DNA of 55,037 nt, taken from Candidatus Kerfeldbacteria bacterium (GTDB lineage Bacteria; Patescibacteriota; Patescibacteriia; UBA9570). The position numbers and the translations under genes were made by a program. The number at the start of each line of letters is the position of its first letter. The first letter of the stretch is position 1. Below are positions 1,930 through 17,367 of the stretch, piece after piece. Below the pieces are notes generated by a model. That model was not told where the DNA came from. It made no database searches and saw only the letters and a program-made list of their open reading frames with translations. Location: the NCBI GenBank assembly GCA_016207285.1, contig JACQPW010000033.1, forward strand, positions 1-55,037, written 5' to 3'.

Positions 1930-3939
1930 ATGCGTCTGGCTATCATTTCAGTCATCCTCTGTAGTCTGCCAACTCTGGCTTTTGCTCGAACTCTGTTATT
2001 AGAGAACTATCAAAATATTCTGTCGTATTCTACTCAGTATCAGTCATCTTCCCTAGTACTTGGTAGGCATGATGCCTCGGGAGATTTTACCGGTGATGGT
2101 ATCAATGATCTGGTCTACTCGGATCCAAATGACAGTGGTCAAGATAAACGCACTGGTATGGTGCGCCTCTTGCCAGGCAATACTACCATCACAGATCCGA
2201 CTAAAGCGGATACTAGCCTACTGAAGAAAGGTAGTGTGGAAAATGAGCGGCAGGGAGCCAGCCTAAATTATATTGGTGATATCAATGGCGACGGCTTTGA
2301 TGAGATTTTTTCCAGTGGCAAGGTCGGGGATGCCTATCTGTATTTTGGAGCATCAGACCCAACCAATCGCTCTGAAACAGCCCTCACCAGTTTATATGAT
2401 TTCAATTGTTGCTTTGAGGCACTTGGTCCGGCCGATATCAATGGTGACAGTCAAGATGACTTAGTGATCGTTCATAATGATTTTTGGAGAACAGAAACGG
2501 CGGTTTATATTGCCTTTGGCCCCATCGACCCGACCACCGCCTTAACCATTACTGATGTAGCTGATGTGACTATCCCCAATCTGGGCAGGGGTGGTCGTAC
2601 GTATTCTCACAGTGCAACTGGAGACATCAATGGTGATGGATATGATGATTTACTATTAGCTGATGATACCACCTACCCAGACAAAGCTGTCTATCAAATT
2701 GTGTTTGGATCAACCAGCCTGCCAACCACAGTCACAGCATTCGATGCCACGATCGCCTCAAAATATGAACTCACTGACGTGTTGACTGGAGATGTGAACG
2801 GGGATGGCTTAACGGATATACTCTGTCGGCAGGCAAGCAGCAAAGGGTTTTATCTCATATTAGGTTCAGCCGACTTAGCTGGCGAAATCGGTTTAAAAAC
2901 AGCTGCCGTCTCTACCATCCCGTATACATTGGGAGAACCCGCCGAAATTGCCGATCTCAATGCTGATGGTTTAGATGACATCGTCATCGTGAAAGATGAT
3001 TTGGTTGGCTCACATAATCAATACGGTTCAGGGTATATTGTGAATGGGCGTACCGACTGGCCAGCCAGCCTTACTGAACAAGATGCCAGAAGTCAATTTA
3101 TTGGCGGTGGTATGTATGAAGAAATTCCTGTGATATCAGCCGGTGACATTGATGGCGATCAGAAAAATGATTTGATTGTTGGTTCACCATATTATCAGGC
3201 TGGTCAGCCAGCTCGCCTGTATTTACTCACTTCTCGAGATCAGGACAGTGATCAGTTTACTGGTCTATCCGGTGATTGTGATGATACTATCTCCACCATC
3301 AATCCGGATGAACGTGATGATACGGGTGATCAAGTGAATAATGATTGTGATGGTTACACCGATGAAGCTGCGACGTTCTCACCACTCCAAAATGGGAAGA
3401 TCGTGTCAGTTGAATTGTTGCCTTATCAGCAGTTGGTTATCACCTATGCAGATGATTCTAAGCAGAGTATTTTTTTAAGTGAATATAGTAACAAATCGAA
3501 CAAGTATTATAATGCCTTCCATATCCCAGAAACAAAGTTCATCGCTGTCATGAATAATGACTATGGTGACGGTGAAGAATTGTATGTCATGAATGGCTAT
3601 TCAGGAAAAACAGTTGCTCGAGTGGTGGAGCATGTTTCGAACGCATTTCAAACTAACGGTATTCTTCATCTGGATCATACTACTGCGTATGGGCAAGAAC
3701 TGCTGATTGGTGCCAATCATTACGAAGTGGGTGCCGGAGACTATTATTTTCCTACAGAAGTATATCTTTTTTCCGTAGATACAGTTACTGGGCAGATCAT
3801 CTGGCGAGATACTGTGGCTATTGATCAGTTGTACCGTCAAGTAGAGGTCAGGGGTAAAACAATCCAGTTGCTCATTAAGGGAAATACCGTAGCGCAGTTC
3901 AAGATTACCGCAGATCTCACATTAGAACAAACCGAGTAA
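1930..3939 (+). CDS. secreted FG-GAP/VCBS-repeat protein with MopE-like Cys/Asp motif and unknown C-terminal domain
   Basis: 669 aa with a signal-peptide-like N-terminus (MRLAIISVILCSLPTLAFA). Repeated Ca-binding-type loops: GDFTGDGINDL, GDINGDGFDE, ADINGDSQDDL, GDINGDGYDDL, GDVNGDGLTDI, ADLNADGLDDI, GDIDGDQKNDL. Motif DCDDTISTINPDE...NNDCDGYTDE lies at nt 3274-3366. Confidence 0.75.
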   Translation: MRLAIISVILCSLPTLAFARTLLLENYQNILSYSTQYQSSSLVLGRHDASGDFTGDGINDLVYSDPNDSGQDKRTGMVRLLPGNTTITDPTKADTSLLKKGSVENERQGASLNYIGDINGDGFDEIFSSGKVGDAYLYFGASDPTNRSETALTSLYDFNCCFEALGPADINGDSQDDLVIVHNDFWRTETAVYIAFGPIDPTTALTITDVADVTIPNLGRGGRTYSHSATGDINGDGYDDLLLADDTTYPDKAVYQIVFGSTSLPTTVTAFDATIASKYELTDVLTGDVNGDGLTDILCRQASSKGFYLILGSADLAGEIGLKTAAVSTIPYTLGEPAEIADLNADGLDDIVIVKDDLVGSHNQYGSGYIVNGRTDWPASLTEQDARSQFIGGGMYEEIPVISAGDIDGDQKNDLIVGSPYYQAGQPARLYLLTSRDQDSDQFTGLSGDCDDTISTINPDERDDTGDQVNNDCDGYTDEAATFSPLQNGKIVSVELLPYQQLVITYADDSKQSIFLSEYSNKSNKYYNAFHIPETKFIAVMNNDYGDGEELYVMNGYSGKTVARVVEHVSNAFQTNGILHLDHTTAYGQELLIGANHYEVGAGDYYFPTEVYLFSVDTVTGQIIWRDTVAIDQLYRQVEVRGKTIQLLIKGNTVAQFKITADLTLEQTE

Positions 3940-3948
3940 AGAAAGGGT

Positions 3949-3986
3949 TAGCTCGTGGAGCCAGCAGCGAGTACTGGACTTTTTTC
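3949..3986 (+). terminator. possible weak intrinsic terminator after the FG-GAP gene
   Basis: Short imperfect stem (CCAG...CTGG, 3961-3977) followed by a T6 run at 3980-3985. The stem is weak. Confidence 0.3.
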
Positions 3987-4006
3987 GAAAAGTCAAGTGA
4001 ACCAGA

Positions 4007-4036
4007 TTGACAACCTTGGGAAAGAAGTGGTATAGT
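4007..4036 (+). promoter_or_regulatory. sigma70-like promoter for the rpsU operon
   Basis: TTGACA (4007-4012), an 18-nt spacer ending in TGG, then TATAGT (4031-4036), giving an extended -10 TGGTATAGT. A strong SD, GAGGAGGTGA, lies at 4070-4079. Confidence 0.55.
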
Positions 4037-4085
4037 CCAAACGCAATTTGTTTATTATTTTTCTCACCTGAGGAGGTGAAATTTT

Positions 4086-4343
4086 GTGCCAGCTATTAGA
4101 GTGCAACGCAACGAAAACGAATCAAACGAAAGCCTAACGCGCCGTTTTGTTCGCAAAGTCCAAGCTAGCGGTAATTTAACCCTAGTGAAAAAGAAACAGC
4201 ATCGTGAACGTCCGGTCAGCAAACGATTGCAGCGTCGCAGCGCCATTCTCCGTTCCAAATCTCGTGATAAACGGGAACACTTACGGAAAATCGGTAAGCT
4301 CGATGAGATCCAAGATCGTTCTAAGCGGAAATTTCGTCGGTAA
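4086..4343 (+). CDS. rpsU: 30S ribosomal protein S21
   Basis: 85 aa, very basic, GTG start 6 nt after GAGGAGGTGA. The translation PAIRVQRNENESNESLTRRFVRKVQASG...KRLQRRSA resembles S21. Confidence 0.85.
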   Translation: MPAIRVQRNENESNESLTRRFVRKVQASGNLTLVKKKQHRERPVSKRLQRRSAILRSKSRDKREHLRKIGKLDEIQDRSKRKFRR

Positions 4344-4371
4344 AAATAAAGCTAAAAACCAAATATTGCGC

Positions 4372-4815
4372 ATGAGCGTTTTTGCCACCATCCAAACAGA
4401 CATGATTTCCGCCATGAAAAGCAAGGTAGAAATTGAGGTCTCCACGTTGCGTGGTTTAAAAGCGGCTATCCAAAAAGATGCGATCGACAGCAAGGGCTCG
4501 CCAGATGATGATCAGCGAGCTTTTGTTGTGTTGAAACAAGAGGCTAAAAAGCGGCAGGATTCTGTCCAAGCTTATCGGGCGGCTGGTCGGAATGATTTAG
4601 CCGATCAAGAGCAAGCGGAGTGGGAGTTGATTAAGCACTATTTGCCGGCACAGTTATCGGAAGCCGAAGTGAAGATCGTGGTGGATCAAGTGGTGCAGGC
4701 CAATGGGGACAATAAAAATTTTGGTTTGTTAATGAAACAGGTCATGCAACAGTTGGATGGTCAAGCCGATGGAAAGGTCGTATCCACTCTTTTGAAACAA
4801 GCACTGACTGTATGA
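4372..4815 (+). CDS. yqeY: GatB/YqeY-domain protein
   Basis: ATG at 4372 (Met57 of the listed 4204 ORF) gives ~147 aa. Typical YqeY pattern: IQTDMISAMKSK...LRGLKAAIQKD...QEAKKRQDSVQAYRAAGRNDLADQEQAEWELIKHYLP...FGLLMKQVMQQLDGQADGKVVSTLLKQ. Its position after rpsU matches the conserved rpsU-yqeY pairing. Confidence 0.8.
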   Translation: MSVFATIQTDMISAMKSKVEIEVSTLRGLKAAIQKDAIDSKGSPDDDQRAFVVLKQEAKKRQDSVQAYRAAGRNDLADQEQAEWELIKHYLPAQLSEAEVKIVVDQVVQANGDNKNFGLLMKQVMQQLDGQADGKVVSTLLKQALTV

Positions 4816-7800
4816 ACCGGTATAAACGTGCCTTGCAACTGTTCCTCGTCTCTGCCAGTGGTTGGGTTTTAACTACCCAGGCTGCCTGGGCGCAAGTCAA
4901 TACCAGTTTTGATTTTGTGTTAGGTGATACCTCGCCAATTGATATCATCATTGCGATCATTAATTGGACGTTAGGTATCTTAGCTCTGATCGCTGTAGTC
5001 ATCATTCTCTATGGGGGCTTTGTCTGGATGACCGCTCAAGGTGATGAGGAGAAGCTCACTAAAGCTAAAGCTATTTTACGTAATGCCTTGATCGGTTTGG
5101 TCATTATTTTGGCCTCATGGGGGATCGCCCGCTACATTATCAACTTGTTCCTTGATCTGACTGGGGCAACCAATGATGAATACTCGACACCGTATGAACC
5201 ATACGAATCATCCAGTGGTTCGCCGTTTTACGTTGATCATTCTAATCCAGCTGATGGCGACGAAGACGTTACGTTGTGTCATATTATTGCCGTTACTTTT
5301 TCTTACCCACTCAACGAATCATCCGTCGATTCCAGCAGCTTCACGGTCACGATTCCAGAAGATTCCGTCACTAACCCGGGTGGTGGGTTGGGCAATAGTG
5401 TGAGTTGTACCTCTGATAACCAGTGTTTGTCGGGTGTCTGCAGCGATGCGGGATCCTGTGATGGTGACGCTGTAGCTGGTTCATTTGCCTTTTCCGAAAG
5501 CAGCTATGCAGCGGTGTTTTATCCCAGTACGGATTACTTATCAGACACCACCTACCGGGTAGAATTAAGCACTGCCGTTGAAGGGATTAGCCCAGACACC
5601 GGTGCTGTTTATAATTTGACCTCTGGTGACGCCAAACGTATTTTTACCTTTACCACTGGTAATACCACTGATGATATTCCCCCCAAGGTAGACGTGACAG
5701 ACGTGACACCCTCCCCTGATGACGATGAAGCCGACATCTGTTTAAATCCAACGTTCCAAGTATCGTTTTCAGAGAGTTTGGATCCCGCCTCTCCAGCAGA
5801 CACCAATGTCTGGCTGTATGCGGCTGCCTCGACACCAACCGATAGTCTAGATTTAGGCACCATTCGTTTAACCAGTATTGGCGGTGAGGCTGATGATACG
5901 ATTGCGACCTCACCAGAATTAGAGCTGTCCAGTTACACCGACTATGGGTTAAGCCTGTATAGTGGTGACAGCACCACTGACACCTTTGAAGGGGCTATTT
6001 ATGATACCTGCGGCAATCCATTGAGTGGTGATTTTGATGATGATATGGAAGGTAGCCCGACGGATGATTTTGTCGATCCGGCTTCCAGTGGGTTAGATCA
6101 AGCCTTTTGTAGCTGCACAACGGGCACTGATAGTTGTAATGTCGATATCGGTAGTAGTAGTTGCGACGTAGATGCTGACACCACTTGTACATTAGACGCT
6201 ACCTGCAGTGATACCAGTGACGATTATGTTGGCTTCACATATCAATGGAACTTTACCACTGGTGACGAACCGTACTGTCTGCCTAATGTCGAAGATATTA
6301 CCCAGGAAGATTATTACTATAGTGAAGATGAAGACCCCACCGGAGATACCGGTAGTGAAGATACTGGGATCGTTTTGATTGAGGGGGAGTATCTGTATCC
6401 GTTCTATGATGTCGACTTTAATAACAATATGTCGGCAGCTGGGATGAACTGTTTTGATACCGATTTTACTTCCAGCATGTCCTGTTTTGTGGATAATATT
6501 GGCAGCACTGCCATCACTGTCCGTACCCCGGTAGCCAGCCAGACCGGACGCATTAGTGTTGAAAATGCTGATGGTGCCGATACGTCTGCCGACACAGCCA
6601 TCATCTTGTCGCCCTATGTGCGTAACACTTCCCCGTTAAGTGGGCCGCCCGGGCAGTATGTTACCATTCGCGGTTCCAACTTTATTGATTATGATCCAGA
6701 TGATACGACCAGTGAGCGTGGCCATGTTTATTTTGATGGAGTAGAGGTGGAAGTGATGTGTGATGATGGTTGGGATGATGATCAAATTATCGTCCGAGTG
6801 CCGGATGAGTATGTGGATGGTGACACGCCATTAATTCAGGTGTTGACCGTTGGGCCAGATGAGTCGGCTGATACCAGCGATGATAAATATAGTAACCATG
6901 AAGGGTTCACCGTCACCTCTGGCAACCCTGGGCCAGGGATTTGTGAGCTTGATCCTAGTTGTAGCGATAGTGGTTTAGATGATGTAGCGGTGATTGGTGA
7001 AAACTTTGGCACCTCTGGCACAGCCTATTTAGATCCGCCCGATGCTGACTATGAAGCTTGGCCAGCCTCGCAGTGGGATGTGTATAATTCTACCTATGAT
7101 AGTCAATCGGTTGTCACTGATGGTGCCAGCAGTCCATTCACAGCACCCAATGACTATACGTTGACCTTAGGTAACTCGGAAGGAATCAGTAATGGTCTAG
7201 ATTTTGATATTACCTGTCACGATTCTCCCCAGGTCTTTCAGTACTACCAGTGCGATTTAGAGCAAGATACCTACTATTTACCGAACCCAACTGGTTACAC
7301 GGATAATGCCTGCGTCAACAGCGTCATCTACTTTGGGTTTACCAATGACATGGATGATGCCACGGTCGAAGCCAATGCCACCATCTATCAATGTAATAGT
7401 ACGGCTACACCGTATGACGCCACTACCTGTACTACTTCCGTTGCTGGAACCTATGTGACCGATTACTTGAATGCCGCTTATCTTGGTGGTGACAGTAGTG
7501 ACACCTTAGATGGTACCGATGACATAGATGGTGACGGTGACATTAATGAATACGATGCCTATAGTGGCTACACCTTTTATCCAGACGGGGGTTTGGATGC
7601 TGCCTACTACTATTTGGTGACACTACCAGTAACCATTACCAATAAGGCCGGTGTCCCACTAGGGAGTGAATACAGCTGGTATTTTGCCGTCCGGGATGAT
7701 ACCGCTAATTGTGTGGCTGATTATTTAGCCTTGAATCCGGCTGCGCAACGGGTCAATAGTTATGATAGTTTTGATGCTTGTTTGGATCAGTATGAGTATA

Positions 7801-10800
7801 ACGATACTAGCTATTCGTTACGAGCTCGTCCAGCTACCTCTGATTGTTTGATCTTAAACGATGCCGGTGATTACGACTGGAGTGTGACGCAGCCAGTTGG
7901 TGCGGACATTTTAAGTTTTGGTGTGAACGATGCTACTACTACGGATATTGCTTATGGTACTACAACCACTACCACGACCAATGGTTATAATACCGTTTGT
8001 TTAGAAGGTGACGATGAGACCAATGATGGCTTAGCGACTGTATCAGCCGAGCTACTAGATTCTAGTGACGGTTCTGTGGCGGCTAGTGATGATGCTACCA
8101 TCGAAGTCGACTTTGGTTTCTGTACCCAAGATAGTGATTGTTACACCGAAGATTGTCGTGATACCTATTGTGATGCTACTACTTCGCATTGTGCTCCCGA
8201 TATTATTGCCTTTACCCCTAACAATAGCACTGGTTCTGACGTTGGCCCCAGTGGTTGTGTCACCTTGTCTGGTTGTTATTTTGGTAACGATCAAGATCAA
8301 GAAGGTTCGTGTACGTGTACGCAACTGGAAGTGAATGATTCCGATACGAGCGATAATGAAACCTGTAGTGTGGATGAAGGGGGCTATAATTGTTTGTTGC
8401 AAGATGGCATCCAAACCTGTAGTTTAGATGCCGATTATTGTGCGTTAGGTGAGACTTGTTCCACTGAATCTACCAGCGCCAATTATGATCTCGGTTTCTT
8501 CCGTGGTTGTGATTGTACGATGACCGATGGAACGGATCGCACCTGTCGCGTTGAAGAAGGCTATACCGAGTGTGTCGCTCAAGGTGATACAGAAACGTGT
8601 GATAGCACTGATAGTAGCTTTGTCGATGGTGGTACGGGTAGTGTTAGCTTTACGGATGCAGCTGCCACTGATTATCCGGCTTCTTTCCCATCGGAAGTGA
8701 TTTGTGAAGATATTTGGGATAACGATCAAGTGATCGCGCAGGTACCGGGCTCGGTGGCTGCGGGTGATTATAGTTTAACCTTAAACAGTTACTATAGTTT
8801 GACTGATATCTACGGTAGCGCCGGTGATGATGCTACAGAGTCAGATTGTACGGTGGGCAGTAACGCTACTCCTTGTTTGTGCCGCGCTGACCCAGATACG
8901 GGACGAGAAAGCACCACTACCGATTTATATGGTGAGGGTTTTGATCTTTTGACTACTGACGGTAATCAGGAGGTGACTTTTTCCCCTTCCACTAGCCGGT
9001 TACCGGCTGATGGTTCAGAAATCTGGACGAGTGCCAATTTCATTGATGAAGTCGTGGTACCAGAAGGGGCGGTGTCAGATGACGAAGGCGTGCAGTTGGA
9101 AAATGATACTTTAGCTTTAACCAGTAATGCTTTATCATTTTCAGTCAGTTGTGGCTCTAACTTAGATTGTGCCACTGGGTGTTGCAGTGCTGGTCAGTGC
9201 GCCACCGCTGAAACTTGTAATGCCTGCGAAAATAGTACAGATTGCACCTATGGAAGCTGCCTATCCGAATGCGCCGATGGCATGTGTGAACCCTACATTA
9301 TTGATGTTAGCCCAGAAGCTGGTGCAGTGGGTCAGCCAGTGACTATTCAAGGTTGTCATTTTGGAACGTACTATAATCCGTCCACCTATACAACAGGTAG
9401 TAAAGTGACTGTGGACGGTATTACCGCCGAATTAGCCTGTAGCGAAGTAGATTCTTGGAATAACCTGCAGATTATTGCCACGATGCCGGATGATATTTTT
9501 GTTGATACCTCTGACACCACGGCCGATGTTGTCGTTACTCAAGTGTATACCAGTGGTGGTGCCCAGGTAGCCCAAACCAGCAACACGGCCGTCTTTAGCC
9601 AGGATGAGAGTTGTTCGGAAGTTGATCTACCAGTATTGTGCGATGCTACCCCAGGCTATAGTCCGTTGACGACCAGTTATGATGTGACCCTAGAAGGGGA
9701 GCAGTTTGCGGATGAAGATAGCGGTTACTGCACCTGTAACACCACTTCCTTAGGTGATTGTGAGATTGCAGAGGGTTCCGCCTCTTGCACGGTTTCTGCT
9801 ACCACCACCTATTATGTCAATCCAGATTTCACCTCTGAAACCTGTGCTACGACCACCTCTAATGCCTATAGTGTCTATGATGGTACGCTTGGGTATTGTG
9901 TGTATACCGATCCTGATGGTGCCACCACAGTGTATTTAGATCCAGAGGATCCTACAGAAGTCTGTGCGACCACGACCACATCAGCTGATACCAATGGTTA
10001 TTCGACCTATTCAGCGACCGATGGGTACTGTACGTACACTGATCCTACAGATGCAACACAGACCTGTGTGATAGCCGTAGGCAACGCTAGTTGTAGTGTA
10101 TGTACCATACCGGTTGACAGCAGCACCTGCTCATTAACGGCTAGCGAGACCTGTTATGTGGATGAAGACGCTACATCAACCACCTGTTCTTCCTCTGTGA
10201 GTAACTTCACCAATTTAGATGGTTCGGCTGAATATTTCAATGATGTGACAGCCAGTGTGGACTGGACTCAATATTACGACACTCAATATATTACCGATGT
10301 GCCCGATGGTTCTGAAACCGGTGATGTACTGGTTATTGCCACTACCGATGCTGGCACCCAATGCAGCAGTAATGGTCTGGAATTCCCAGTCACGTGTGAT
10401 AGTTGCAGTGAGTGTGGTAGCACGCGGGATAACTTATTGAACTGTAATTTGGATTACGATCCCAGTTTTGGTAGTTGCACGGCGGACACCGCTGGGTTCT
10501 GTCGGGATGAACCAGATTCCTGTTGTAATCTATCTAGTTGTGCGTATGATGATAGTGATGGTACAGATACCGGCACCTGTGCCGCTCAACCGATTATTCA
10601 GTTTGACGATGAAGATGCCGATGCCTTGAGTGACTACATCGAAAGTGACTACAGTATGGATGCCGGGTTACAAGATACGGATGATGATGACACGATTGAT
10701 TCTGACGAAGTCGGCGTAGATAATGGTAATTATGCCCTGGATGTGATTGATTCAGCGACCTTCCCCACACCTGGTCAAAATCCTGTCTGTTCTAATGCAC

Positions 10801-13229
10801 AAATTAGTATCCAATTTAGTCAGCCGATTACCACGAGTGCTGTCTTTGACTTCAACGATAACGATACTGTATTGGACGAGAATGGAGACGATATTACTGA
10901 CTTTACCGATGACGTGGCTCCTGAAGATATTGAATTTACCGATTATATCCGGTTGCATTACTCAAGTTTTGCTGACACGAGTACGGTCACAAATATTAGC
11001 GACATAGTTTTATCCAATGATGGTACTACGTTAACGTTCGAGCTGAGTCGTGTACTCCGTCATGGCGTAGAGTTTGAGATTATTATCGAAACGGATGATT
11101 ATCGCTCCGGGATTATCGATGCCGAAACTGGGGTGCCGCTAGGCTGTACTACGGAAATGGAGGATGATGGGTTGTGTTACGATGGTTACCTACGATATAC
11201 CTTTACGACCACTTCCTTGACGCAGTACAGTGATTCCTGTTCACCAGCGTATGTGGTGCTGGAAGCGGACAGTGAGGATTTTCAAGATGCCAATTATACC
11301 TTTAGTGAGTCTGAACAGGAAGAAAGCTTTACTGCCACTGTGTATGCAGCCGGCGAGGATCTCTATCCAGATAATGGTACAACAGATGCAGACGCTGATG
11401 GGGTTGATGATGGCGACGATGATCAGCCGATCACCCGGATTGATGATGGGGCGGACGCTGGGTTTGATTGGACGTATGCGTGGGATCCGATCTATGACAC
11501 CATCGAAGATTTAGAAGCCGCTTCTTGCCCGGTAGCTGGTATTATTACGGATGAGGAAGTCGGTAGCTGTAGCTGTGATGTGGAGGAAAGCTGTGATATT
11601 ACCGCTGGTGATGAAACTTGTACGACCAGCAGTGGTGTCAGTTGTTACACCGATTCACCCAATGCCGAATGTGATGCCTTTGATTCTGGCTATGATCCTA
11701 CCGATAACAATTGTGTCTGTACCGTATCCGATAGTTGCACCATCGAAGCAGCCGAAGCTAGTTGTACGGTGGATATTAATGACACTACGGTTACGTGTAC
11801 AACCGATTCTACCGCTACCACACCAGTCTGTGATACTTCCGATACTGGTTGGTCTGATGGCAGTTTTGTGGAAGATACCGATACGCAAACCTTGACCGCC
11901 GATACACCAGATAGTAATGGTAGTAATACCGATACCATTGAGGTGAGGGTAACGGGAGATGGCTCGGTGGAACAAGGTTGGGGTAGCTCTGTACCTGCCG
12001 CCGAAGGGGATGATCTAACGGATAGCATCTTATTTGATCTCTACTATTGTGATGCCAACTACTTGGTCAGTTATTCGAATGCGGACTATAATTTTTACTG
12101 GCGCTATTGTCGTGGTACCGACCCGCAAGATGAAGACTTCTTGCCTGATTTTTCTACGCCGGTGTTTGAACGCAGCGATACAGACATTGATACCGCCTAT
12201 GGTAGCGATCAAGAATTTATTTACGAAGTTGCCTTTAAAGATGCGACAGCCGGGAGCAACGATCCTACCACTAATAATAACTTGGTGGCAGTGCGGGTAT
12301 ACCCCAATGACTTTGATGGTGATTTAACCACCCCAGGGGATAGTGTGAATCCAGATCTGTGGTACTTATTGAATACCAATAATGCGGATGCTTCCTCTAG
12401 CGCCACGACCATTGATGGTTATGATGCGGTCGAGGTGGGTAACACTACCTATGTAGCGGCCACCAACTTAGACGATGGTACTGGTATTGTTTCACCGTAT
12501 ATTTATGTGATTGCCTACAGCAGCGATGCCGATGAGGAGACGACAGCAGTCGTAGCAGCTTTACTAGAAGGCTTTAAGTTCAACCGTAATGATGAACTAT
12601 CCGCTAGTTGTGCTATTGAGAAAGTTGCGCTCATTGCGGATGCCGACCGAGTAACGGATCTAGGAACCATTGCCTATGTATTAAGCAGTTATTATTACAA
12701 TGATACGGATTTGAATGGTACAGATGATTTCCCAGCCCTGGCCAGTGGGTCGTATATTTCTGGATTTACTACCTCTATCTGGCCGTCGTGGAACGATACC
12801 TTTGGTACGCTATTGGGGCAGACCTTAGATACCGATCCTGTGAATGCCTTTGCTGATGCCGAAACCAGTTGCCCGTATGATCCACCAGATTTGTCCGCCG
12901 GCGAAACGACCGGTACGTATTATGATGAAACGGGCACCTGTTGGGATCCAGTGCTAGAAGATTTCTATGGTCCAGCCGATTCAGAGCTCTATCTCTATCA
13001 ATACCATGATGCCGACGATTTTGCGCTCTATACTAACTTAGAATATGATGGCACCGGTAGTTGGATTGAGGCCAAATATGATCCTTGCACCTCCTATTAC
13101 GATGATGGTACAACGGCGACGACGGCTGACGCTATTAGCGCTTACTCTGATAGTGGTTGCGGTACGTTCGATTATATAGTGGAGGATAGCGAAACGACTG
13201 ATAATACCACCTATGACGACCTCTTCTAG
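4812..13229 (+). CDS. giant (2805 aa) membrane-anchored, highly acidic, Cys-rich surface protein with Ig-like (SbsA/Big_5-like) and IPT/TIG-like modules
   Basis: Uninterrupted 8.4-kb ORF whose ATG overlaps the yqeY stop (ATGA). The N-terminus has a signal-like segment plus two TM helices flanking GGFVWMTAQGDEEKLTKAKAIL. IPT/TIG-like segments follow (e.g. SGPPGQYVTIRGSNF...VYFDGVEVEV; SPEAGAVGQPVTIQGCHFG). There are many CxC-containing Cys modules, and the composition is D/E/T/S-rich and K/R-poor. Confidence 0.85.
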   Translation: MNRYKRALQLFLVSASGWVLTTQAAWAQVNTSFDFVLGDTSPIDIIIAIINWTLGILALIAVVIILYGGFVWMTAQGDEEKLTKAKAILRNALIGLVIILASWGIARYIINLFLDLTGATNDEYSTPYEPYESSSGSPFYVDHSNPADGDEDVTLCHIIAVTFSYPLNESSVDSSSFTVTIPEDSVTNPGGGLGNSVSCTSDNQCLSGVCSDAGSCDGDAVAGSFAFSESSYAAVFYPSTDYLSDTTYRVELSTAVEGISPDTGAVYNLTSGDAKRIFTFTTGNTTDDIPPKVDVTDVTPSPDDDEADICLNPTFQVSFSESLDPASPADTNVWLYAAASTPTDSLDLGTIRLTSIGGEADDTIATSPELELSSYTDYGLSLYSGDSTTDTFEGAIYDTCGNPLSGDFDDDMEGSPTDDFVDPASSGLDQAFCSCTTGTDSCNVDIGSSSCDVDADTTCTLDATCSDTSDDYVGFTYQWNFTTGDEPYCLPNVEDITQEDYYYSEDEDPTGDTGSEDTGIVLIEGEYLYPFYDVDFNNNMSAAGMNCFDTDFTSSMSCFVDNIGSTAITVRTPVASQTGRISVENADGADTSADTAIILSPYVRNTSPLSGPPGQYVTIRGSNFIDYDPDDTTSERGHVYFDGVEVEVMCDDGWDDDQIIVRVPDEYVDGDTPLIQVLTVGPDESADTSDDKYSNHEGFTVTSGNPGPGICELDPSCSDSGLDDVAVIGENFGTSGTAYLDPPDADYEAWPASQWDVYNSTYDSQSVVTDGASSPFTAPNDYTLTLGNSEGISNGLDFDITCHDSPQVFQYYQCDLEQDTYYLPNPTGYTDNACVNSVIYFGFTNDMDDATVEANATIYQCNSTATPYDATTCTTSVAGTYVTDYLNAAYLGGDSSDTLDGTDDIDGDGDINEYDAYSGYTFYPDGGLDAAYYYLVTLPVTITNKAGVPLGSEYSWYFAVRDDTANCVADYLALNPAAQRVNSYDSFDACLDQYEYNDTSYSLRARPATSDCLILNDAGDYDWSVTQPVGADILSFGVNDATTTDIAYGTTTTTTTNGYNTVCLEGDDETNDGLATVSAELLDSSDGSVAASDDATIEVDFGFCTQDSDCYTEDCRDTYCDATTSHCAPDIIAFTPNNSTGSDVGPSGCVTLSGCYFGNDQDQEGSCTCTQLEVNDSDTSDNETCSVDEGGYNCLLQDGIQTCSLDADYCALGETCSTESTSANYDLGFFRGCDCTMTDGTDRTCRVEEGYTECVAQGDTETCDSTDSSFVDGGTGSVSFTDAAATDYPASFPSEVICEDIWDNDQVIAQVPGSVAAGDYSLTLNSYYSLTDIYGSAGDDATESDCTVGSNATPCLCRADPDTGRESTTTDLYGEGFDLLTTDGNQEVTFSPSTSRLPADGSEIWTSANFIDEVVVPEGAVSDDEGVQLENDTLALTSNALSFSVSCGSNLDCATGCCSAGQCATAETCNACENSTDCTYGSCLSECADGMCEPYIIDVSPEAGAVGQPVTIQGCHFGTYYNPSTYTTGSKVTVDGITAELACSEVDSWNNLQIIATMPDDIFVDTSDTTADVVVTQVYTSGGAQVAQTSNTAVFSQDESCSEVDLPVLCDATPGYSPLTTSYDVTLEGEQFADEDSGYCTCNTTSLGDCEIAEGSASCTVSATTTYYVNPDFTSETCATTTSNAYSVYDGTLGYCVYTDPDGATTVYLDPEDPTEVCATTTTSADTNGYSTYSATDGYCTYTDPTDATQTCVIAVGNASCSVCTIPVDSSTCSLTASETCYVDEDATSTTCSSSVSNFTNLDGSAEYFNDVTASVDWTQYYDTQYITDVPDGSETGDVLVIATTDAGTQCSSNGLEFPVTCDSCSECGSTRDNLLNCNLDYDPSFGSCTADTAGFCRDEPDSCCNLSSCAYDDSDGTDTGTCAAQPIIQFDDEDADALSDYIESDYSMDAGLQDTDDDDTIDSDEVGVDNGNYALDVIDSATFPTPGQNPVCSNAQISIQFSQPITTSAVFDFNDNDTVLDENGDDITDFTDDVAPEDIEFTDYIRLHYSSFADTSTVTNISDIVLSNDGTTLTFELSRVLRHGVEFEIIIETDDYRSGIIDAETGVPLGCTTEMEDDGLCYDGYLRYTFTTTSLTQYSDSCSPAYVVLEADSEDFQDANYTFSESEQEESFTATVYAAGEDLYPDNGTTDADADGVDDGDDDQPITRIDDGADAGFDWTYAWDPIYDTIEDLEAASCPVAGIITDEEVGSCSCDVEESCDITAGDETCTTSSGVSCYTDSPNAECDAFDSGYDPTDNNCVCTVSDSCTIEAAEASCTVDINDTTVTCTTDSTATTPVCDTSDTGWSDGSFVEDTDTQTLTADTPDSNGSNTDTIEVRVTGDGSVEQGWGSSVPAAEGDDLTDSILFDLYYCDANYLVSYSNADYNFYWRYCRGTDPQDEDFLPDFSTPVFERSDTDIDTAYGSDQEFIYEVAFKDATAGSNDPTTNNNLVAVRVYPNDFDGDLTTPGDSVNPDLWYLLNTNNADASSSATTIDGYDAVEVGNTTYVAATNLDDGTGIVSPYIYVIAYSSDADEETTAVVAALLEGFKFNRNDELSASCAIEKVALIADADRVTDLGTIAYVLSSYYYNDTDLNGTDDFPALASGSYISGFTTSIWPSWNDTFGTLLGQTLDTDPVNAFADAETSCPYDPPDLSAGETTGTYYDETGTCWDPVLEDFYGPADSELYLYQYHDADDFALYTNLEYDGTGSWIEAKYDPCTSYYDDGTTATTADAISAYSDSGCGTFDYIVEDSETTDNTTYDDLF

Positions 13230-13827
13230 CCAAGTAGAGGATATCTTTGCTGACCAAACCGAGGTTTCGTTACCAACTGAACCAGAGCCGCCCGTCCTTG
13301 ATACAGATACTACAGATACGGCGTCCAGTGTTACCCCACTGGTCGCTCCACGGCGGTCGTATGGCCGGCTGATCTTAATCATTGCCAGCTGCTTGTTGGC
13401 TTTGCTATTATTAGGTGGTATTGGGTTTGGTGTTTGGGTCTGGTTGCAGACTCCGCCAGACGATGGAACCAACCTAAGCAATGACAATGTGAACGTGGTT
13501 GTTCCAGTGGTCAATACAAATGACAATACCAATGATCCTGTGGTGGTGACGCCAACCAACACCACGGTGGATGTCACACCTACCTTCGTAGACGTTGACC
13601 ACGATGGTTTGTCCGACGGTGAGGAGTTGATCGTCAACACCAACCCGAAGAAAAAAGATACCGATGAGGATGGTTTGTCTGATCGCGAAGAAGTCCGGGT
13701 CTATAATACTGATCCACGTAATCCAGATACGGATGGAGATGGCTATACTGATGGAGATGAAGTAACGCACTCTTACCACCCCAATAGTTCAGACCCTAAA
13801 AAACGTTTATTCGATTTACCACAATAA
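13213..13827 (+). CDS. single-pass membrane protein with thrombospondin type-3-like Ca-binding repeats
   Basis: 204 aa, overlapping the giant ORF by 17 nt. TM segment LILIIASCLLALLLLGGIGFGVWVWL, an N/V/T low-complexity linker, then DVDHDGLSDGEE, DTDEDGLSDREE and DTDGDGYTDGDE repeats. Confidence 0.65.
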   Translation: MTTSSSQVEDIFADQTEVSLPTEPEPPVLDTDTTDTASSVTPLVAPRRSYGRLILIIASCLLALLLLGGIGFGVWVWLQTPPDDGTNLSNDNVNVVVPVVNTNDNTNDPVVVTPTNTTVDVTPTFVDVDHDGLSDGEELIVNTNPKKKDTDEDGLSDREEVRVYNTDPRNPDTDGDGYTDGDEVTHSYHPNSSDPKKRLFDLPQ

Positions 13828-13838
13828 AAATAAATCCT

Positions 13839-15140
13839 ATGGATTTTCCAAGTGCACCACAACCACAAACCCCGACCACTCCTCCTATGCCACCTGCCTT
13901 CCCGACTCCAAGTCCCGCTCCGGCTCCTACCCCGGTTCCACCGCAACCAATGATGACACCGACCTTTCCAAGCGTGGCTGCTCAACCTGTACAGATTCCG
14001 GTGCAAACGCATGCGGCTGGGCCGATGGGTAGCGATGACCAAATTTATACAATGCCAGAGAAATTTATTCCGGCTAATCAGGCTCCGGTAACCACAGCCA
14101 AACGCCCGCGTAAAACCATGACCATTATCTTAATCGTGGTGATTGTGTTAGCGGTCTTATCTATCATTGGTGGTGTGGCCTTTTATGTTTGGCAAATGAT
14201 GTCGACCGAAACCGTGGTCACGGATGCAAACAATGCTGTGGTGGTGAATACGCCGGTTAATAATGCGAATACTAATAGCGCGAATACCAATTTGGATAAT
14301 GCTAATACTAACGACAATGCCAACGTTGTGAATGTCAATGACGACGATAACGGTAACGACAATGCGAATGCAAACAGCAATGCTAATGACAATGTGAATG
14401 CTGATACCAATACGAATGCGGCTAATACCAACACAGTCAATACAAATACAACCAACACAAACACCACAACAGCTGTGGTTCCGCCTCCCAGTAAGGATAC
14501 CGATCAAGATAGCTTAACCAACGAAGAAGAAAAGATCTGGGGTACCAAAGCTGATTTACCAGACACTGATAGTGACGGCTATAACGACGGTGTTGAAATT
14601 TTGGCTGGTTATGATCCTACCAGTGCTGTGAGTTCTACTCGTTTGTCGGCTAGCGCACTCGTCAGTACCTTTACGAATAGTGAATATAATTATACCTTGC
14701 TCTATCCCAAGAATTGGCTAGCTGAAGGCTTAACTGGTGGTGATGGCAGTGAAATTCTGATTACGCCTAATACGCTAGATTTAACTGGTCAGTTTATTGC
14801 CATTACCGTGGCTGGTAATCCTACCGGGTTTACGGCCGTTGATTGGTATATGGATACCGCCGATGTCACAGAAGCCGAAGTCGAGACCTTTACGACCTTT
14901 GCTGGTCAAACGGGTGCCTGGAGTACCGATCATACTACGGCTTATCTGACTGATACGGACTATGTGTATGCCATTAGTTATCGCTATGGCAATAGTGATA
15001 CCCTTTATTTTCCAGCGACGCATGAGATGATGTTGAAGAGTATGACATTTACCGAAGTAACTACCAAGAAAAAAGATTCCACCAACACTAACGAGAACAC
15101 CAACGAAGATTCCAATACGAATGCCAACGCTAACAATTGA
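13839..15140 (+). CDS. membrane protein: Pro-rich N-terminus, TM, Asn-rich linker, TSP3-like repeats, unknown C-terminal globular domain
   Basis: 433 aa. PQPQTPTTPPMPPAFPTPSPAP region, TM segment MTIILIVVIVLAVLSIIGGVAFYVW, a long NANTN-type low-complexity tract, DTDQDSLTNEEE and DTDSDGYNDGVE repeats, then a ~150-aa non-repetitive domain. Confidence 0.65.
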   Translation: MDFPSAPQPQTPTTPPMPPAFPTPSPAPAPTPVPPQPMMTPTFPSVAAQPVQIPVQTHAAGPMGSDDQIYTMPEKFIPANQAPVTTAKRPRKTMTIILIVVIVLAVLSIIGGVAFYVWQMMSTETVVTDANNAVVVNTPVNNANTNSANTNLDNANTNDNANVVNVNDDDNGNDNANANSNANDNVNADTNTNAANTNTVNTNTTNTNTTTAVVPPPSKDTDQDSLTNEEEKIWGTKADLPDTDSDGYNDGVEILAGYDPTSAVSSTRLSASALVSTFTNSEYNYTLLYPKNWLAEGLTGGDGSEILITPNTLDLTGQFIAITVAGNPTGFTAVDWYMDTADVTEAEVETFTTFAGQTGAWSTDHTTAYLTDTDYVYAISYRYGNSDTLYFPATHEMMLKSMTFTEVTTKKKDSTNTNENTNEDSNTNANANN

Positions 15141-15537
15141 GCTACGGAAGCAAGTAGTGGCACCACAGCTTACTCATCCACTGGTGCAACGAGTGTGGCG
15201 GGCGGTGCAACGTCAGGTGACGGTACCGCAGCGCTGGCAACAGGTGAGTGTGGTGGTTGTAGGTGATACAGCGATGAAGCGTCTGAATCAGCGTTATCGT
15301 CATTCAGCCACTGTGACGGATGTATTGTCTTTTCCGTATGGTGCCGATGGCGGTGAGGTGGTGGTCTGTTATCCACAGGCTAAACGTCAGGCTGCCAGTA
15401 AACAAGTTTCCGTACGGTCTGAACTGGCTTGGTTATTGACTCATGGTTTATTGCATATCTTGGGTTACGATCACGAACTGGCTAAGGACGCTAACGTGAT
15501 GCGTCCACTAGAACAACGTATTTTACAGTATGTTTAA
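15121..15537 (+). CDS. ybeY: rRNA maturation endoribonuclease YbeY
   Basis: 138 aa. The zinc-binding motif HGLLHILGYDHE is diagnostic of the YbeY family. Overlaps the upstream ORF by 20 nt. Confidence 0.85.
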   Translation: MPTLTIELRKQVVAPQLTHPLVQRVWRAVQRQVTVPQRWQQVSVVVVGDTAMKRLNQRYRHSATVTDVLSFPYGADGGEVVVCYPQAKRQAASKQVSVRSELAWLLTHGLLHILGYDHELAKDANVMRPLEQRILQYV

Positions 15538-15892
15538 CTTTAAGAACCAGAGCCAGAGTTTTCGTTATGCCGTGCAAGGTTTACGCTTTGTTTGGCAACA
15601 GGAGCAGAATTTTCGGGTTCAAAGCTTTATAGCGGTCTTGGTGATTATCGCCATGATCCTGTTTCGGGTAACACTCGGTGAAGCTATTATTCTGACCATG
15701 ATGATCGTTTTTGTTTTGGTTTTAGAGGTAGTCAATACTATTTTTGAGAAATTTGTTGATATTTTAAAGCCGCGTTTACACATGTATGTTGGTGTTATTA
15801 AGGATATGATGGCGGCGGCGGTCTTACTGGCCGCCTGTGGAGCAGTAGCCATAGCCTTAATGGTGTTTATTCCATATATTGTGGTACAATAA
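15530..15892 (+). CDS. dgkA: diacylglycerol/undecaprenol kinase (DgkA family)
   Basis: 120 aa, three TM helices. FRYAVQGLRFVWQQEQNFRVQ ... LEVVNTIFEKFVD ... KDMMAAAVLL matches the prokaryotic DAGK pattern. Its position after ybeY is conserved synteny. Confidence 0.8.
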   Translation: MFNFKNQSQSFRYAVQGLRFVWQQEQNFRVQSFIAVLVIIAMILFRVTLGEAIILTMMIVFVLVLEVVNTIFEKFVDILKPRLHMYVGVIKDMMAAAVLLAACGAVAIALMVFIPYIVVQ

Positions 15893-15896
15893 CGCT

Positions 15897-17150
15897 ATGC
15901 CAAAAGGGGACATCATCACTGGTTTAGACATTGGATCAACTACCATCCGTGTTGCCGTCGGTCAAATGAATCCGCATGATAACGATCTGCACATTATTGG
16001 TGCCGCTGAACACCCAGCCGAAGGTATTAATAAAGGGGTAGTGACTAGTATTGAAGATGCCGTTGCTAGTATCTCGGGTGCTTTGGATAAGGTAGAGCGC
16101 ATGACTGGAATCCCCACTGAACGATCGTATGTGAGTGTCAACGGTAGCCATATTGTTTCGCAAGAGAGCCACGGGGTAGTGGCGGTATCCAAGGCGGATG
16201 GCGAGATTCGTGAAGATGATGTGCAACGTGCCATTGAAGCAGCCCAAACGGTAGCTACTCCGCCCAATTATGAAATTCTCCATGTCATCCCACGCCAGTT
16301 TCAGGTCGATAATCAGGCCGGCGTCAAAGACCCGGTAGGGATGACCGGTATTAAACTAGAAGTTGATGCGCAAATTATTCTCGGTCTCACCTCGCAAGTC
16401 AAAAATCTCACTAAGTGTATTTATCGTACGGGCACGGATATTCAGGATCTGGTCTTGGGTGTGCTAGCCGTGAGTGAAGCGGTGCTGACCAAACGACATA
16501 AGGAATTGGGAGTTGCCTTAGTGAACATGGGTGGCCTCACGACTAGTGTAATGGTATTTGAAGAAGGGGATGTGATTCACACCAAAATTTTACCAATTGG
16601 TTCTGGACATATCACTAATGATATTGCGATTGGTTTACGTACCTCGGTGGATGTGGCTGAAATCATTAAGGCACGGTTTGGTACGGCTGTCCCGGGAGAT
16701 GTCGCTAAACATGAAGAAATCGACCTGCGTGAAATTGACCCTACTGAAAATAGCCGGGTATCGCGTAAAGAAGTGGCTGAAATCATCGAAGCGCGCTTAG
16801 AAGAGATTTTTACCATGGTGAACAAAGAGCTAAAATCAATTAATCGTCATGGTATGTTGCCAGCCGGTGTTGTGCTCACGGGTGGCGGCGCTAAACTGAC
16901 CGGAATTGTGGAGGTGGCTAAGAAACTATTTTCCTTACCCGCTTCGATTGGTACCCCCCATAAATTTAAGACGGCTATTGATAAAATTGAAGATCCGGTG
17001 TTTGCTACGGCGCTTGGTTTAGTGATGTGGGGAGAGAATATGCATCAACAAAACAGTAGTGGTGGCAGATTGGCGTCTTTGGCTAGATTTTCGGCGGTGG
17101 GGGATGCCACGACCAAAATGAAGAAGTGGTTCAAGAGCCTTCTACCCTAG
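15897..17150 (+). CDS. ftsA: cell division protein FtsA
   Basis: Actin-like ATPase. GLDIGSTTIRVAVG phosphate-1 motif and VLTGGGAKLTGI; lies upstream of ftsZ. The start is taken at ATG 15897 (Met7 of the listed ORF), just after the dgkA stop. Confidence 0.9.
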   Translation: MPKGDIITGLDIGSTTIRVAVGQMNPHDNDLHIIGAAEHPAEGINKGVVTSIEDAVASISGALDKVERMTGIPTERSYVSVNGSHIVSQESHGVVAVSKADGEIREDDVQRAIEAAQTVATPPNYEILHVIPRQFQVDNQAGVKDPVGMTGIKLEVDAQIILGLTSQVKNLTKCIYRTGTDIQDLVLGVLAVSEAVLTKRHKELGVALVNMGGLTTSVMVFEEGDVIHTKILPIGSGHITNDIAIGLRTSVDVAEIIKARFGTAVPGDVAKHEEIDLREIDPTENSRVSRKEVAEIIEARLEEIFTMVNKELKSINRHGMLPAGVVLTGGGAKLTGIVEVAKKLFSLPASIGTPHKFKTAIDKIEDPVFATALGLVMWGENMHQQNSSGGRLASLARFSAVGDATTKMKKWFKSLLP

Positions 17151-17166
17151 GTACTCATTAAAAAAT

Positions 17167-17227
17167 AAATTTCCCTTGCGCTTAACGAAGACTAAGTCGC
17201 TTAAGGGAAATTTATTCTTTAATTTTT
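17167..17227 (+). terminator. intrinsic terminator after ftsA
   Basis: Long hairpin: AAATTTCCCTT (17167-17177) pairs with AAGGGAAATTT (17203-17213), with further inner pairing (GCG/CGC, CTTA/TAAG). It is followed by the T-rich tail ATTCTTTAATTTTT. Confidence 0.6.
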
Positions 17228-17236
17228 CTCCAAAAA

Positions 17237-17299
17237 ATCCGGCAGACTGTGTTGGAACGACTTAGGTCCTCCGTTAAGTGAGAACACAGTCTGCTGGAT
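17237..17299 (+). promoter_or_regulatory. 63-nt strand-specific RNA hairpin of unknown function in the ftsA-ftsZ spacer
   Basis: ATCCGGCAGACTGTGTT (17237-17253) pairs with AACACAGTCTGCTGGAT (17283-17299). The single non-Watson-Crick position is G-U on the + strand RNA but C-A on the - strand. The 29-nt loop has its own pairing potential. Confidence 0.4.
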
Positions 17300-17315
17300 T
17301 CAATGTGTGCAGCAT

Positions 17316-17332
17316 GAATACAAATTGTATTC
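17316..17332. promoter_or_regulatory. palindromic candidate operator upstream of the ftsZ promoter
   Basis: GAATACAAATTGTATTC: 7-bp arms around a 3-nt centre, ending 6 nt upstream of the TTGACG -35 element. Confidence 0.35.
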
Positions 17333-17338
17333 AATATA

Positions 17339-17367
17339 TTGACGTAATCTTGAATAGCAAGTAGTAT
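17339..17367 (+). promoter_or_regulatory. candidate sigma70-like promoter for ftsZ
   Basis: TTGACG (17339-17344), 17-nt spacer, TAGTAT (17362-17367), about 40 nt upstream of the ftsZ ATG. Confidence 0.4.

Follow-up and report, generated by a model that had tools for sequence, protein, structure and literature searches.

VirB2-like pilins are abundant in Patescibacteria, and pilin genes are essential in the single species tested (PMC12102498, PMC10633639); a survey of the patescibacterial VirB2-like pilins has been published (PMC12102498). The known proteins of this type are small (about 70-120 amino acids, aa) and are usually encoded in arrays by virB4. Here we analyse a 55 kb stretch of a contig of Candidatus Kerfeldbacteria (Patescibacteria, also called Candidate Phyla Radiation, CPR), referred to as the window, in which a VirB2-like hairpin makes up the first 4% of a protein of 2,805 aa. 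The gene of this giant protein is followed by two smaller open reading frames, ORF2 and ORF3, and all three, referred to as the module, lie between yqeY and ybeY within what appears to be a housekeeping operon. The giant protein has the signal peptide, the two helices and the short basic loop in common with the VirB2/TrbC-like pilins (PF18895; 'Mbov_0395 family pilin-like conjugal transfer protein' in NCBIfam), but no gene of a type IV secretion system (T4SS) was found near the giant gene, neither in the window, which covers 55 kb of the source genome, nor in those related loci for which gene calls were available.

The second group of proteins to be compared are giant adhesins with immunoglobulin (Ig)-like domains, such as SiiE of Salmonella, the LapA-/Bap-type proteins and a Mobiluncus protein of 7,651 aa. 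These are also huge and acidic, consist of tandem Ig-like domains and are associated with Ca2+ binding, and the giant protein presumably is, like them, a rod that projects from the cell. However, these adhesins use type I secretion with RTX/C-terminal signals or a sortase anchor (LPxTG), whereas the N-terminus of the giant protein consists of a Sec signal and a membrane hairpin. It also differs in that its domain repeats have diverged, in its 115 cysteines, in the location of the Ca-binding repeats on two partner proteins and in the position of its gene, which is in a conserved housekeeping operon and not in an island. The repeats of the partner proteins, ORF2 and ORF3, are those of the TSP3 envelope proteins (PF18884), for example CglD and MtsD of Myxococcus: ORF2 has weak matches to both CglD and MtsD and ORF3 has a weak match to MtsD. 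Unlike these, ORF2 and ORF3 are small, span the membrane once and have Asn/Thr-rich spacers and conserved cytoplasmic motifs, and there is no homology beyond the repeats. From S-layer proteins, the giant protein is set apart by its cysteines and by the absence of an SLH-type anchor.

The flanking genes resemble the neighbourhood rpsU-yqeY ... ybeY-dgkA-era of Bacillus subtilis and other Firmicutes. The order of the flanking genes and their location on a single strand are shared, and in one related locus (L074) yqeY is directly beside ybeY; the differences are that the string of the window extends into ftsA-ftsZ and has the surface module between yqeY and ybeY. A search of the accessible literature found no description of giant VirB2-fused proteins, of the C-terminal domain of the giant protein, of the operon arrangement or of the cytoplasmic motifs. 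Already known are the VirB2-like pilin, Big_5, TIG, TSP3 and, probably, PsbP-like domains; unusual are the anchor and the fixed operon context of a giant protein with Ig-like repeats.

The module in related genomes

The giant protein has 65 homologues, about a dozen of which are colinear with it over 100% of the query (35-67% identity, 2,660-2,930 aa). Distant homologues resemble it in the initial ~1,160 residues and in the C-terminal domain and differ in the middle; the region between aa 125 and 1160 aligns in nearly all 65 proteins. The middle region of some homologues contains C-type lectin, VWA, LamG, dockerin or DUF4215 modules, according to precomputed Pfam annotations.

The gene contexts of six homologues (L001-L006), whose identities to the giant protein are, in descending order and not in the order of the loci, 66, 50, 37, 30, 25 and ~25%, were compared to the window. 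The gene order hisS-HIT-rpsU-yqeY-giant-ORF2-ORF3-ybeY-dgkA-ftsA-ftsZ, or the visible part of it, is found in five of the six contexts, all but L004. In the closer relatives L001, L002 and L006 the genes overlap at their junctions as they do in the window; ORF3 and ybeY, for example, overlap by 20 nt in L001 and L002 and by 41 nt in L006. L004, a locus of Uhrbacteria (7726-23841), has an expanded version of the site that takes up about 16 kb and encodes a free 76-aa VirB2-like pilin, a 592-aa pilin-Big_5 protein and the giant protein, followed by proteins of 1,504, 266 and 199 aa and then by a TSP3 protein before ybeY.

In three relatives with 66-67% identity to the giant protein of the window (P0002, encoded in L006 at 1442-9940, P0003 and P0005), all from independent assemblies, the reading frame of yqeY continues into the giant gene: no stop codon separates the two, and the YqeY sequence passes directly into the hydrophobic core of the signal peptide. 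A topology with YqeY on the inside would be viable, and these genes may encode either a true fusion or a giant protein that is restarted at an internal GTG. In L031, the giant gene is split into three ORFs, possibly by frameshifts or assembly errors.

A scan based on an alignment of FtsA, with one genome per GTDB species, provided 80 further loci, the best 80 of at least 200 FtsA matches. These were mapped with hidden Markov models (HMMs) built from the first seven loci, and the orthologues of ORF2 and ORF3 described below were drawn from these loci. The whole analysis is computational and the distribution figures hold for the sampled clade. Taxon names were taken from the record titles and comprise Kerfeld-, Buchanan-, Falkow-, Kuenen-, Veblen-, Uhr- and Jacksonbacteria as well as 'Patescibacteria group'. 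These labels are unreliable: many contigs of the clade (L007, L008, L012, L015 and others) are titled 'uncultured Gammaproteobacteria bacterium' and evidently mislabelled, with the FtsA of L007 being 97% identical to the one of the window, and the title 'Saccharibacteria' of two loci that lack the giant gene (L074 and L078, see below) is uncertain.

Of the 56 loci with at least 9 kb of sequence upstream of ftsA, 53 have the C-terminal domain of the giant protein, 55 have ORF2, 54 have ORF3 and all have ybeY. Wherever both are in range, yqeY is found directly before the pilin-like N-terminus, with gaps of -27 to 471 nt in 24 of 25 loci; the exception is L004, with two extra pilin-domain genes between yqeY and the giant gene. 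Close relatives thus carry the three genes at the same place, rather than elsewhere and with promoters of their own. Median identities to the window are 51% for the hairpin, 33% for the N-region and 36% for the C-terminal domain of the giant protein, 42% for ORF2 and 39% for ORF3. Among the flanking genes, the values are 44% for YbeY and 39% for YqeY, about the same as for the module, 47% for DgkA, 46% for RpsU and 63% for FtsA, indicating that the module has co-diverged with its neighbours. The GC content of the module is that of its flanks, with no anomaly. The shared site of the module in 53 of 56 loci, its co-divergence with YbeY, YqeY and DgkA and the uniform GC content argue for a lineage-wide core module that is inherited vertically, and against an accessory insertion at the strain level. 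The sequence comparisons therefore indicate that the module is ancient, vertically inherited and common to dozens of related species of seven labelled candidate phyla.

Domains and motifs of the three proteins

The giant protein is a 100% match to P0001 (NCBI MBI4407225.1), which is named only 'Ig-like domain-containing protein'. Its ORF of 2805 codons is uninterrupted and the product has a size of about 290 kDa. By hydropathy and charge, the n-region of the signal peptide has three Lys/Arg residues, and two hydrophobic stretches (about aa 40-77 and 85-114), which we read as membrane helices at roughly aa 40-72 and 91-114, are connected by a loop with four Lys/Arg residues. PF18895 (T4SS_pilin) matches aa 44-109 with 40.9 bits (cut-off 26.6); NCBIfam NF045849 matches the N-terminus with an E-value of 5e-07 and a score of 29.3, below the equivalog cut-off of 40. 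AlphaFold2, run with 31 homologues, predicts a helical hairpin with helices at aa 42-74 and 79-117 (pLDDT >90). A Foldseek search of the PDB with this model returned generic helical hairpins only (E >0.5) and no pilin within the top 50, a two-helix hairpin being too simple to discriminate. From the basic loop and the positive-inside rule we infer that the loop is cytoplasmic and that the remaining ~2,700 residues are outside the cell.

This predicted ectodomain contains Ig-like domains of two families. Pfam searches with the whole protein and with tiles place Big_5 twice at aa 138-400 and again at about aa 918-958, and TIG at about aa 601-667 (47.5 bits for Big_5; 39.5 bits for TIG, in a tile); of all these matches, a second Big_5 domain, the TIG domains (two in total) and further Big_5-like stretches come from the tiles. 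Scattered among the Ig-like domains are six small CxC...C...C...C modules, and the five in the variable middle region begin at aa 1167, 1233, 1640, 2253 and 2301. The domain repeats are diverged and not near-identical, and there are no DNA repeats within the giant gene. The composition is extreme: 521 Asp and Glu residues (18.6%) face 52 Lys and Arg residues (1.9%), with Lys contributing only 13, and Cys accounts for 4.1% of the residues, compared to at most 1.8% in every other protein of the window that was checked. Both acidity and Cys content are far beyond those of the other secreted proteins of the window. A motif scan of the giant protein found neither LPxTG nor RTX (GGxGxD) motifs, Pfam and NCBIfam searches found no SLH or related S-layer anchoring domain, and there was no sequence match in the PDB.

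The C-terminal domain of the giant protein is specific to the family and has invariant Cys, Trp and Tyr positions (alignment A1); the invariant Cys argue for an extracellular, disulfide-bonded setting of the giant protein. The domain has no match in Pfam and no sequence match in the PDB. Its AlphaFold2 model has a pLDDT of 67.8 and a pTM of 0.74, and a Foldseek search of the PDB with this model found nothing at E <=1e-3. In a profile search of 1.84 billion cluster representatives, the domain was found in 1,577 clusters at 50% identity (1,337 at E <=1e-30), and most of the best matches listed are proteins of 1,500-4,000 aa. In many loci (L012-L021, L029, L039 and others) the giant ORF runs 500-1,300 residues past the domain, which is hence internal in relatives' proteins of more than 3,000 aa. 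A helix with the sequence R-D-T-x-R-x-T-D-L is reminiscent of pilins, but a type IV pilin-like head had no support in Foldseek, Pfam or PDB sequence searches.

ORF2 and ORF3 both carry the calcium-binding repeat D-x-D-x-D-G-x-x-D-x-x-E. ORF2 consists of an acidic N-terminal tail, a transmembrane helix within aa 48-80 that is preceded by RR..R, an Asn/Thr-rich spacer and three TSP3 repeats (TSP3_bac, PF18884, 69.7 bits). ORF3 has a Pro-rich cytoplasmic tail, a transmembrane helix within aa 89-122 after KRPRK, a long Asn/Thr-rich spacer, a pair of TSP3 repeats and a domain of about 150 aa. The basic residues before the helix place, by the positive-inside rule, the N-terminus of both proteins inside the cell and the repeats outside. 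The TSP3_bac match of the window's ORF3 is sub-threshold (16.2 bits); 38 of 48 orthologous segments do match, and the Asp/Glu positions are invariant. The C-terminal domain of ORF3 is probably PsbP-like (PsbP/Mog1 type), on the basis of sub-threshold profile matches: PsbP_2 (PF18933) matches 15 of 48 orthologous segments (best E-value 4.3e-05) and PsbP (PF01789) 11 of 48, the window's own copy does not reach an E-value of 0.1, and the profile of the ORF3 family matches the cyanobacterial PsbP 2xb3 with an E-value of 0.013.

The cytoplasmic tails of both proteins are unalignable, apart from one short motif in each. Among L001-L086, the ORF2 orthologues have an EDIF-like motif in 54 of 64 cases and close variants of it in four more; in the window it is part of the peptide QVEDIFADQ. 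Its conservation also speaks for translation of ORF2 from the overlapping ATG at 13213. For ORF3, 66 of 68 orthologues from the same loci have [YH][TV]MPxx[FY] and the remaining two retain IYTMP; the motif sits N-terminal of the membrane helix, at a median distance of 19 residues, and the peptide of the window is DQIYTMPEKFIP. EDIF and Y/H-T-M-P-x-x-F resemble short linear motifs that bind conserved partners in the cytoplasm. The C-terminal peptide of FtsZ in the same genomes is L-E-(I/V)-P-A-F-I-R-K-K-M-M; that the ORF2 and ORF3 motifs are copies of this peptide is not claimed, as the likeness is loose only, but it serves as a lead. With the start codons used here, ORF2 and ORF3 are absent from a collection of 15 billion proteins in which the giant protein of the same contig is present; the deposited annotation may use other starts for the two genes or omit them.

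Expression signals and neighbouring genes

Pfam matches support the order hisS, HIT, FG-GAP protein, rpsU, yqeY, giant gene, ORF2, ORF3, ybeY, dgkA, ftsA, ftsZ in the window; the coordinates are listed in Table 1. An earlier note on this DNA had described the three ORFs and their overlaps, and all of its coordinates were reproduced. The stop codon of yqeY and the start codon of the giant gene share the sequence ATGA at 4812-4815, as read directly from the junction, the giant ORF overlaps ORF2 by 17 nt, and the gap between ORF2 and ORF3 is 11 nt. The start codon of rpsU is GTG (4086), and the true start of yqeY is the ATG at 4372, in place of the GTG at 4204 in the mechanical list of ORFs. The pairs rpsU-yqeY and ybeY-dgkA had been assigned to one conserved neighbourhood, and indeed the four genes are on one strand and in this order in the window and in all related loci that have these genes in range. 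The characterisation of the three module proteins as acidic, rich in Ca-binding repeats or Cys and anchored to the membrane also agrees with their composition, their TSP3 matches and their hydropathy: all three are exported or membrane proteins by prediction, and the families that had been suggested for HMM searches (T4SS_pilin, Big_5, TIG and TSP3, as TSP3_bac) were all matched among them.

Table 1. Features of the rpsU to ftsZ region, with positions in the window
Feature	Position	Strand	Basis
Promoter-like site upstream of rpsU, TTGACA-18-TGgTATAGT	4007-4036	+	best sigma-70-like match in first 20 kb, 11/12, TG extension
rpsU (ribosomal protein S21), first gene of inferred operon	4086-4343	+	Pfam Ribosomal_S21 E 6.3e-05, below gathering score; conserved position
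yqeY (GatB/YqeY-domain protein)	4372-4815	+	Pfam YqeY E 1.3e-37
Giant ORF (2805 aa)	4812-13229	+	ORF map
Giant protein: signal peptide (aa 1-28) and VirB2/TrbC-like two-helix membrane hairpin (aa 40-114)	4812-5183	+	Pfam, hydropathy, AlphaFold2
Giant protein: conserved N-proximal ectodomain (aa 125-1160), Big_5 and TIG Ig-like domains, one Cys module	5184-8291	+	Pfam
Giant protein: variable middle (aa 1161-2339), more TIG/Big_5-like domains, five CxC...C...C...C modules	8292-11828	+	homologue alignment, motif scan
Giant protein: family-specific C-terminal domain (aa 2340-2805, ~460 residues, last 466)	11829-13226	+	alignment A1, structure model
ORF2 (204 aa), single-pass membrane protein, inferred N-in, three extracellular TSP3 Ca-binding repeats	13213-13827	+	Pfam, hydropathy
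ORF2 cytoplasmic motif V-E-D-I-F (aa 8-12)	13234-13248	+	orthologue comparison
ORF3 (433 aa), single-pass membrane protein, inferred N-in	13839-15140	+	hydropathy, profiles
ORF3 cytoplasmic motif Y-T-M-P-E-K-F (aa 70-76)	14046-14066	+	orthologue comparison
ybeY (endoribonuclease)	15121-15537	+	Pfam YbeY E 9.7e-32; 20-nt overlap with ORF3
dgkA (diacylglycerol kinase)	15530-15892	+	Pfam DAGK_prokar E 1.1e-27; 8-nt overlap with ybeY
ftsA	15879-17150	+	Pfam; same position in all related loci
ftsZ	17408-18559	+	Pfam; same position in all related loci
Strongest terminator-like hairpin of the region, 3' of ftsZ	18612-18642	+	13-bp stem, 6 G-C pairs, then T-rich tail

The earlier note had given rpsU its own promoter and a strong Shine-Dalgarno site, and both are readily recognised: the promoter-like site of Table 1 is followed by GAGGAGGTGA in front of the GTG, and most related loci have TTGACA-17/18-TGnTATAnT together with a AGGAGGTGA Shine-Dalgarno site upstream of rpsU. 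It had also reported no promoter or terminator between 4036 and 17150. A consensus scan of this interval confirms that there is no convincing one, with weak matches only (promoter-like sites of 10/12 and stems of 5-6 bp). Terminator-like sites are not in excess (12, compared to 15.3 in shuffled sequences), but promoter-like sites are about two standard deviations (sd) above the shuffles (48 compared to 36.1, sd 5.4), several of them with 10/12 matches, and weak internal promoters may be present. The string from rpsU to ftsZ with its overlapping start and stop codons, the lack of convincing internal signals and the conserved promoter and Shine-Dalgarno site of rpsU make co-expression of the three module genes with the flanking housekeeping genes the most economical reading. 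Scans of the window with Rfam and for tRNAs gave no matches.

Several other genes of the window vary between relatives. A 669-aa FG-GAP repeat protein is encoded between HIT and rpsU (1930-3939). HIT is directly followed by rpsU in L001, L003, L005 and several others, and in L002 just a small DUF559 gene on the opposite strand is in between; this adjacency in relatives indicates that the FG-GAP gene, and not the giant module, is a lineage-specific insertion. The interval between ftsZ and nrdR (19577-24417) encodes two large, secreted proteins, a G8/CEMIP beta-helix protein (726 aa, minus strand) and a NosD-like protein (891 aa, plus strand). In L001-L003, ftsZ is followed by nrdR-cobO-nrdA without the two beta-helix genes; L002 has two unrelated genes on the opposite strand at this position. 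Further downstream (39040-49818) is a glycosylation/envelope cluster with a sugar transferase, three GT4 glycosyltransferases, a DUF4012 protein, MurJ and a TMEM260-like O-mannosyltransferase; this cluster could glycosylate Thr/Ser-rich surface proteins.

Possible roles of the module

We lean towards the view that the module is a surface module fixed in a growth-linked operon, and that it assembles a membrane-anchored structure, most likely for attachment. In this model, the module would be fixed in the operon rpsU-yqeY-[giant-ORF2-ORF3]-ybeY-dgkA-ftsA-ftsZ of Kerfeldbacteria and allied CPR groups, and the three proteins would be made constitutively and in a coupled manner, alongside proteins of ribosome maturation and division. 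Together they would form one surface fibril or coat that is anchored in the membrane, stabilised by Ca2+ and braced by disulfides. The base and tip of the giant protein, both conserved, would flank a variable middle that bears the binding modules (lectin, VWA, LamG and dockerin in relatives), and ORF2 and ORF3 would provide the link, through the membrane, between this structure and a conserved partner in the cytoplasm. The most likely role would be attachment to a host cell or to another surface.

We infer a role in attachment or host interaction from the Ig-like rod architecture and from the binding modules that are swapped in the middle region of the homologues, and data from other Patescibacteria point in the same direction. 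In cultured Paceibacteria, the five signal-peptide genes of unknown function with the highest expression include those of T4SS-pilin-domain proteins and of Ig-like proteins, which have been read as adhesion-related (PMC10936435), and the epibiotic growth of a Saccharibacterium requires several surface adhesins (PMC10633639).

A number of points speak against this proposal. Co-transcription and constitutive expression are deduced from gene spacing and consensus scans only, and several of the promoter-like sites with 10/12 matches are inside the module. A physical complex of the three proteins is suggested by their co-conservation only. Ca2+ binding by the giant protein itself is unsupported: there are just four DxDxD motifs and no RTX repeats. 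The description of the C-terminal domain as having no known fold is provisional, as the confidence of the model is only moderate. Finally, the purifying selection on the module appears similar to that on housekeeping genes, and this fits a structural role in the envelope at least as well as host-specific adhesion.

A bolder version of the proposal, which we consider rather improbable, is a single trans-envelope organelle that all members of this large CPR clade would have and that may be essential to them: a hairpin exapted from a conjugative VirB2 pilin would anchor a giant fibril, ORF2 and ORF3 would hold this fibril at the membrane, and their motifs would couple it to FtsA/FtsZ, encoded in the same operon, or to YqeY, which is fused to the giant protein in three species. 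If true, this would tie attachment or envelope building to growth and division, a long-missing major surface structure of uncultivated bacteria would have been identified and YqeY would gain a cellular context.

Alternatively, the three proteins could be the main structural surface layer of wall-poor, ultra-small cells, built together with growth and division, with the motifs of ORF2 and ORF3 docking to the divisome or cytoskeleton. Such a link to division would account for the constant position of the module beside ftsA and ftsZ. The linkage to ftsA-ftsZ, which is invariant in all loci, and the equally slow divergence of the module and of YbeY and YqeY are in line with such a coat, and the CPR envelope has explicitly been described as unresolved (PMC5220378). 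The motif of ORF3 (M-P-x-x-F-I) is faintly similar to the FtsZ peptide (I/V)-P-A-F-I-R-K-K, but the similarity is inexact and the spacing is off by one residue. Big_5 is the Ig-like domain type of the Geobacillus S-layer protein SbsA, and surface-layer proteins are typically acidic; both would suit a coat. However, classical S-layer proteins have almost no cysteine and a size of 40-200 kDa, unlike the giant protein with its 115 Cys and its mass of about 290 kDa, and neither SLH nor any other known S-layer anchor was found in it. In addition, relatives have lectin, VWA and LamG modules in the variable middle, which point to ligand binding. We regard a coat as the main rival, possible but unlikely.

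Somewhat more doubtful is the display of the giant protein on a pilus: a T4SS would extract the VirB2-like hairpin from the membrane and polymerise it with small pilins, and the giant ectodomain would decorate or tip a pilus of the conjugative type. The PF18895 match is above threshold, and the positive-inside rule puts both ends of the hairpin outside, an orientation that, judged from the structure of the F-pilus, lets a C-terminal extension project from a VirB2-type pilus. T4SSs that include VirB2-like pilins occur widely in Patescibacteria, and the only one tested, the T4SS of Southlakia epibionticum, is essential (PMC12102498; PMC12857230). The free pilin and the pilin-Big_5 protein that precede the giant gene in L004 resemble the reported VirB2 arrays of Patescibacteria; however, the extra pilin genes are restricted to L004, and elsewhere yqeY abuts the giant gene. 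Neither virB4 nor virB6 nor any other T4SS gene is present in the window, the six related loci with gene calls have none either, and the Foldseek search with the hairpin, a fold with little power to discriminate, returned no VirB2 or TraA. Moreover, a cargo of 2,700 residues on each subunit is sterically implausible, and the giant protein would be a minor or tip subunit at best.

The earlier note had proposed that three accessory genes were inserted into the housekeeping operon, and the module could, in principle, be a recent accessory island of this genome. There is one lineage with an empty site: on the complete 1.14-Mb chromosome of L074 (8510-9514), yqeY and ybeY are 120 nt apart with no module in between, and in L078 (2806-4221) the gap holds just a small ORF2-like gene, with membrane helix and TSP3 repeats, that is broken by an in-frame TAA. 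The FtsA proteins of L074 and L078 are 80% identical to each other, about 60% identical to those of all other loci and 56-58% identical to that of the window, about as far as Uhrbacteria. This lineage may either have lost the giant gene or keep an earlier state. In Bacillus, other genes separate yqeY from ybeY, and an adjacency of the two is thus not universal. The empty site makes an insertion at some point in the past plausible, and to this extent the term 'inserted' may hold, but only for an ancient event at the base of the clade: the common site, the co-divergence with the flanks and the typical GC content contradict a recent arrival and do not fit the term 'accessory'. There are also no repeats, no tRNA at the borders of the module and no mobility-type Pfam family among the genes of the window, and true variable insertions are found elsewhere, at the two positions described above that are empty of these genes in L001-L003. 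A recent accessory island is thus very improbable and both of its attributes are refuted. Least of all do we expect an artefact, with the 8.4-kb ORF being a chimera or a misassembled repeat: even though the contig is from a metagenome-assembled genome and the gene of L031 is in three ORFs, about a dozen independent assemblies have colinear full-length orthologues, the gene has no DNA repeats and an open frame of 2,805 codons is impossible by chance.

Patescibacteria represent a large share of bacterial diversity. To our knowledge, all cultivated members live attached to other cells, and their envelope and host-binding molecules are largely unknown beyond a few Saccharibacteria. The module provides a concrete and widely conserved candidate for a surface or host-attachment apparatus, sampled in more than 50 species and with a defined operon context, a distinctive anchor and a new C-terminal domain. 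Its two short cytoplasmic motifs allow direct tests for binding partners. The locus also suggests that a surface apparatus can become locked into an operon of ribosome maturation and cell division over long evolutionary times, which is unusual, as giant surface proteins are normally encoded by variable genes of islands.

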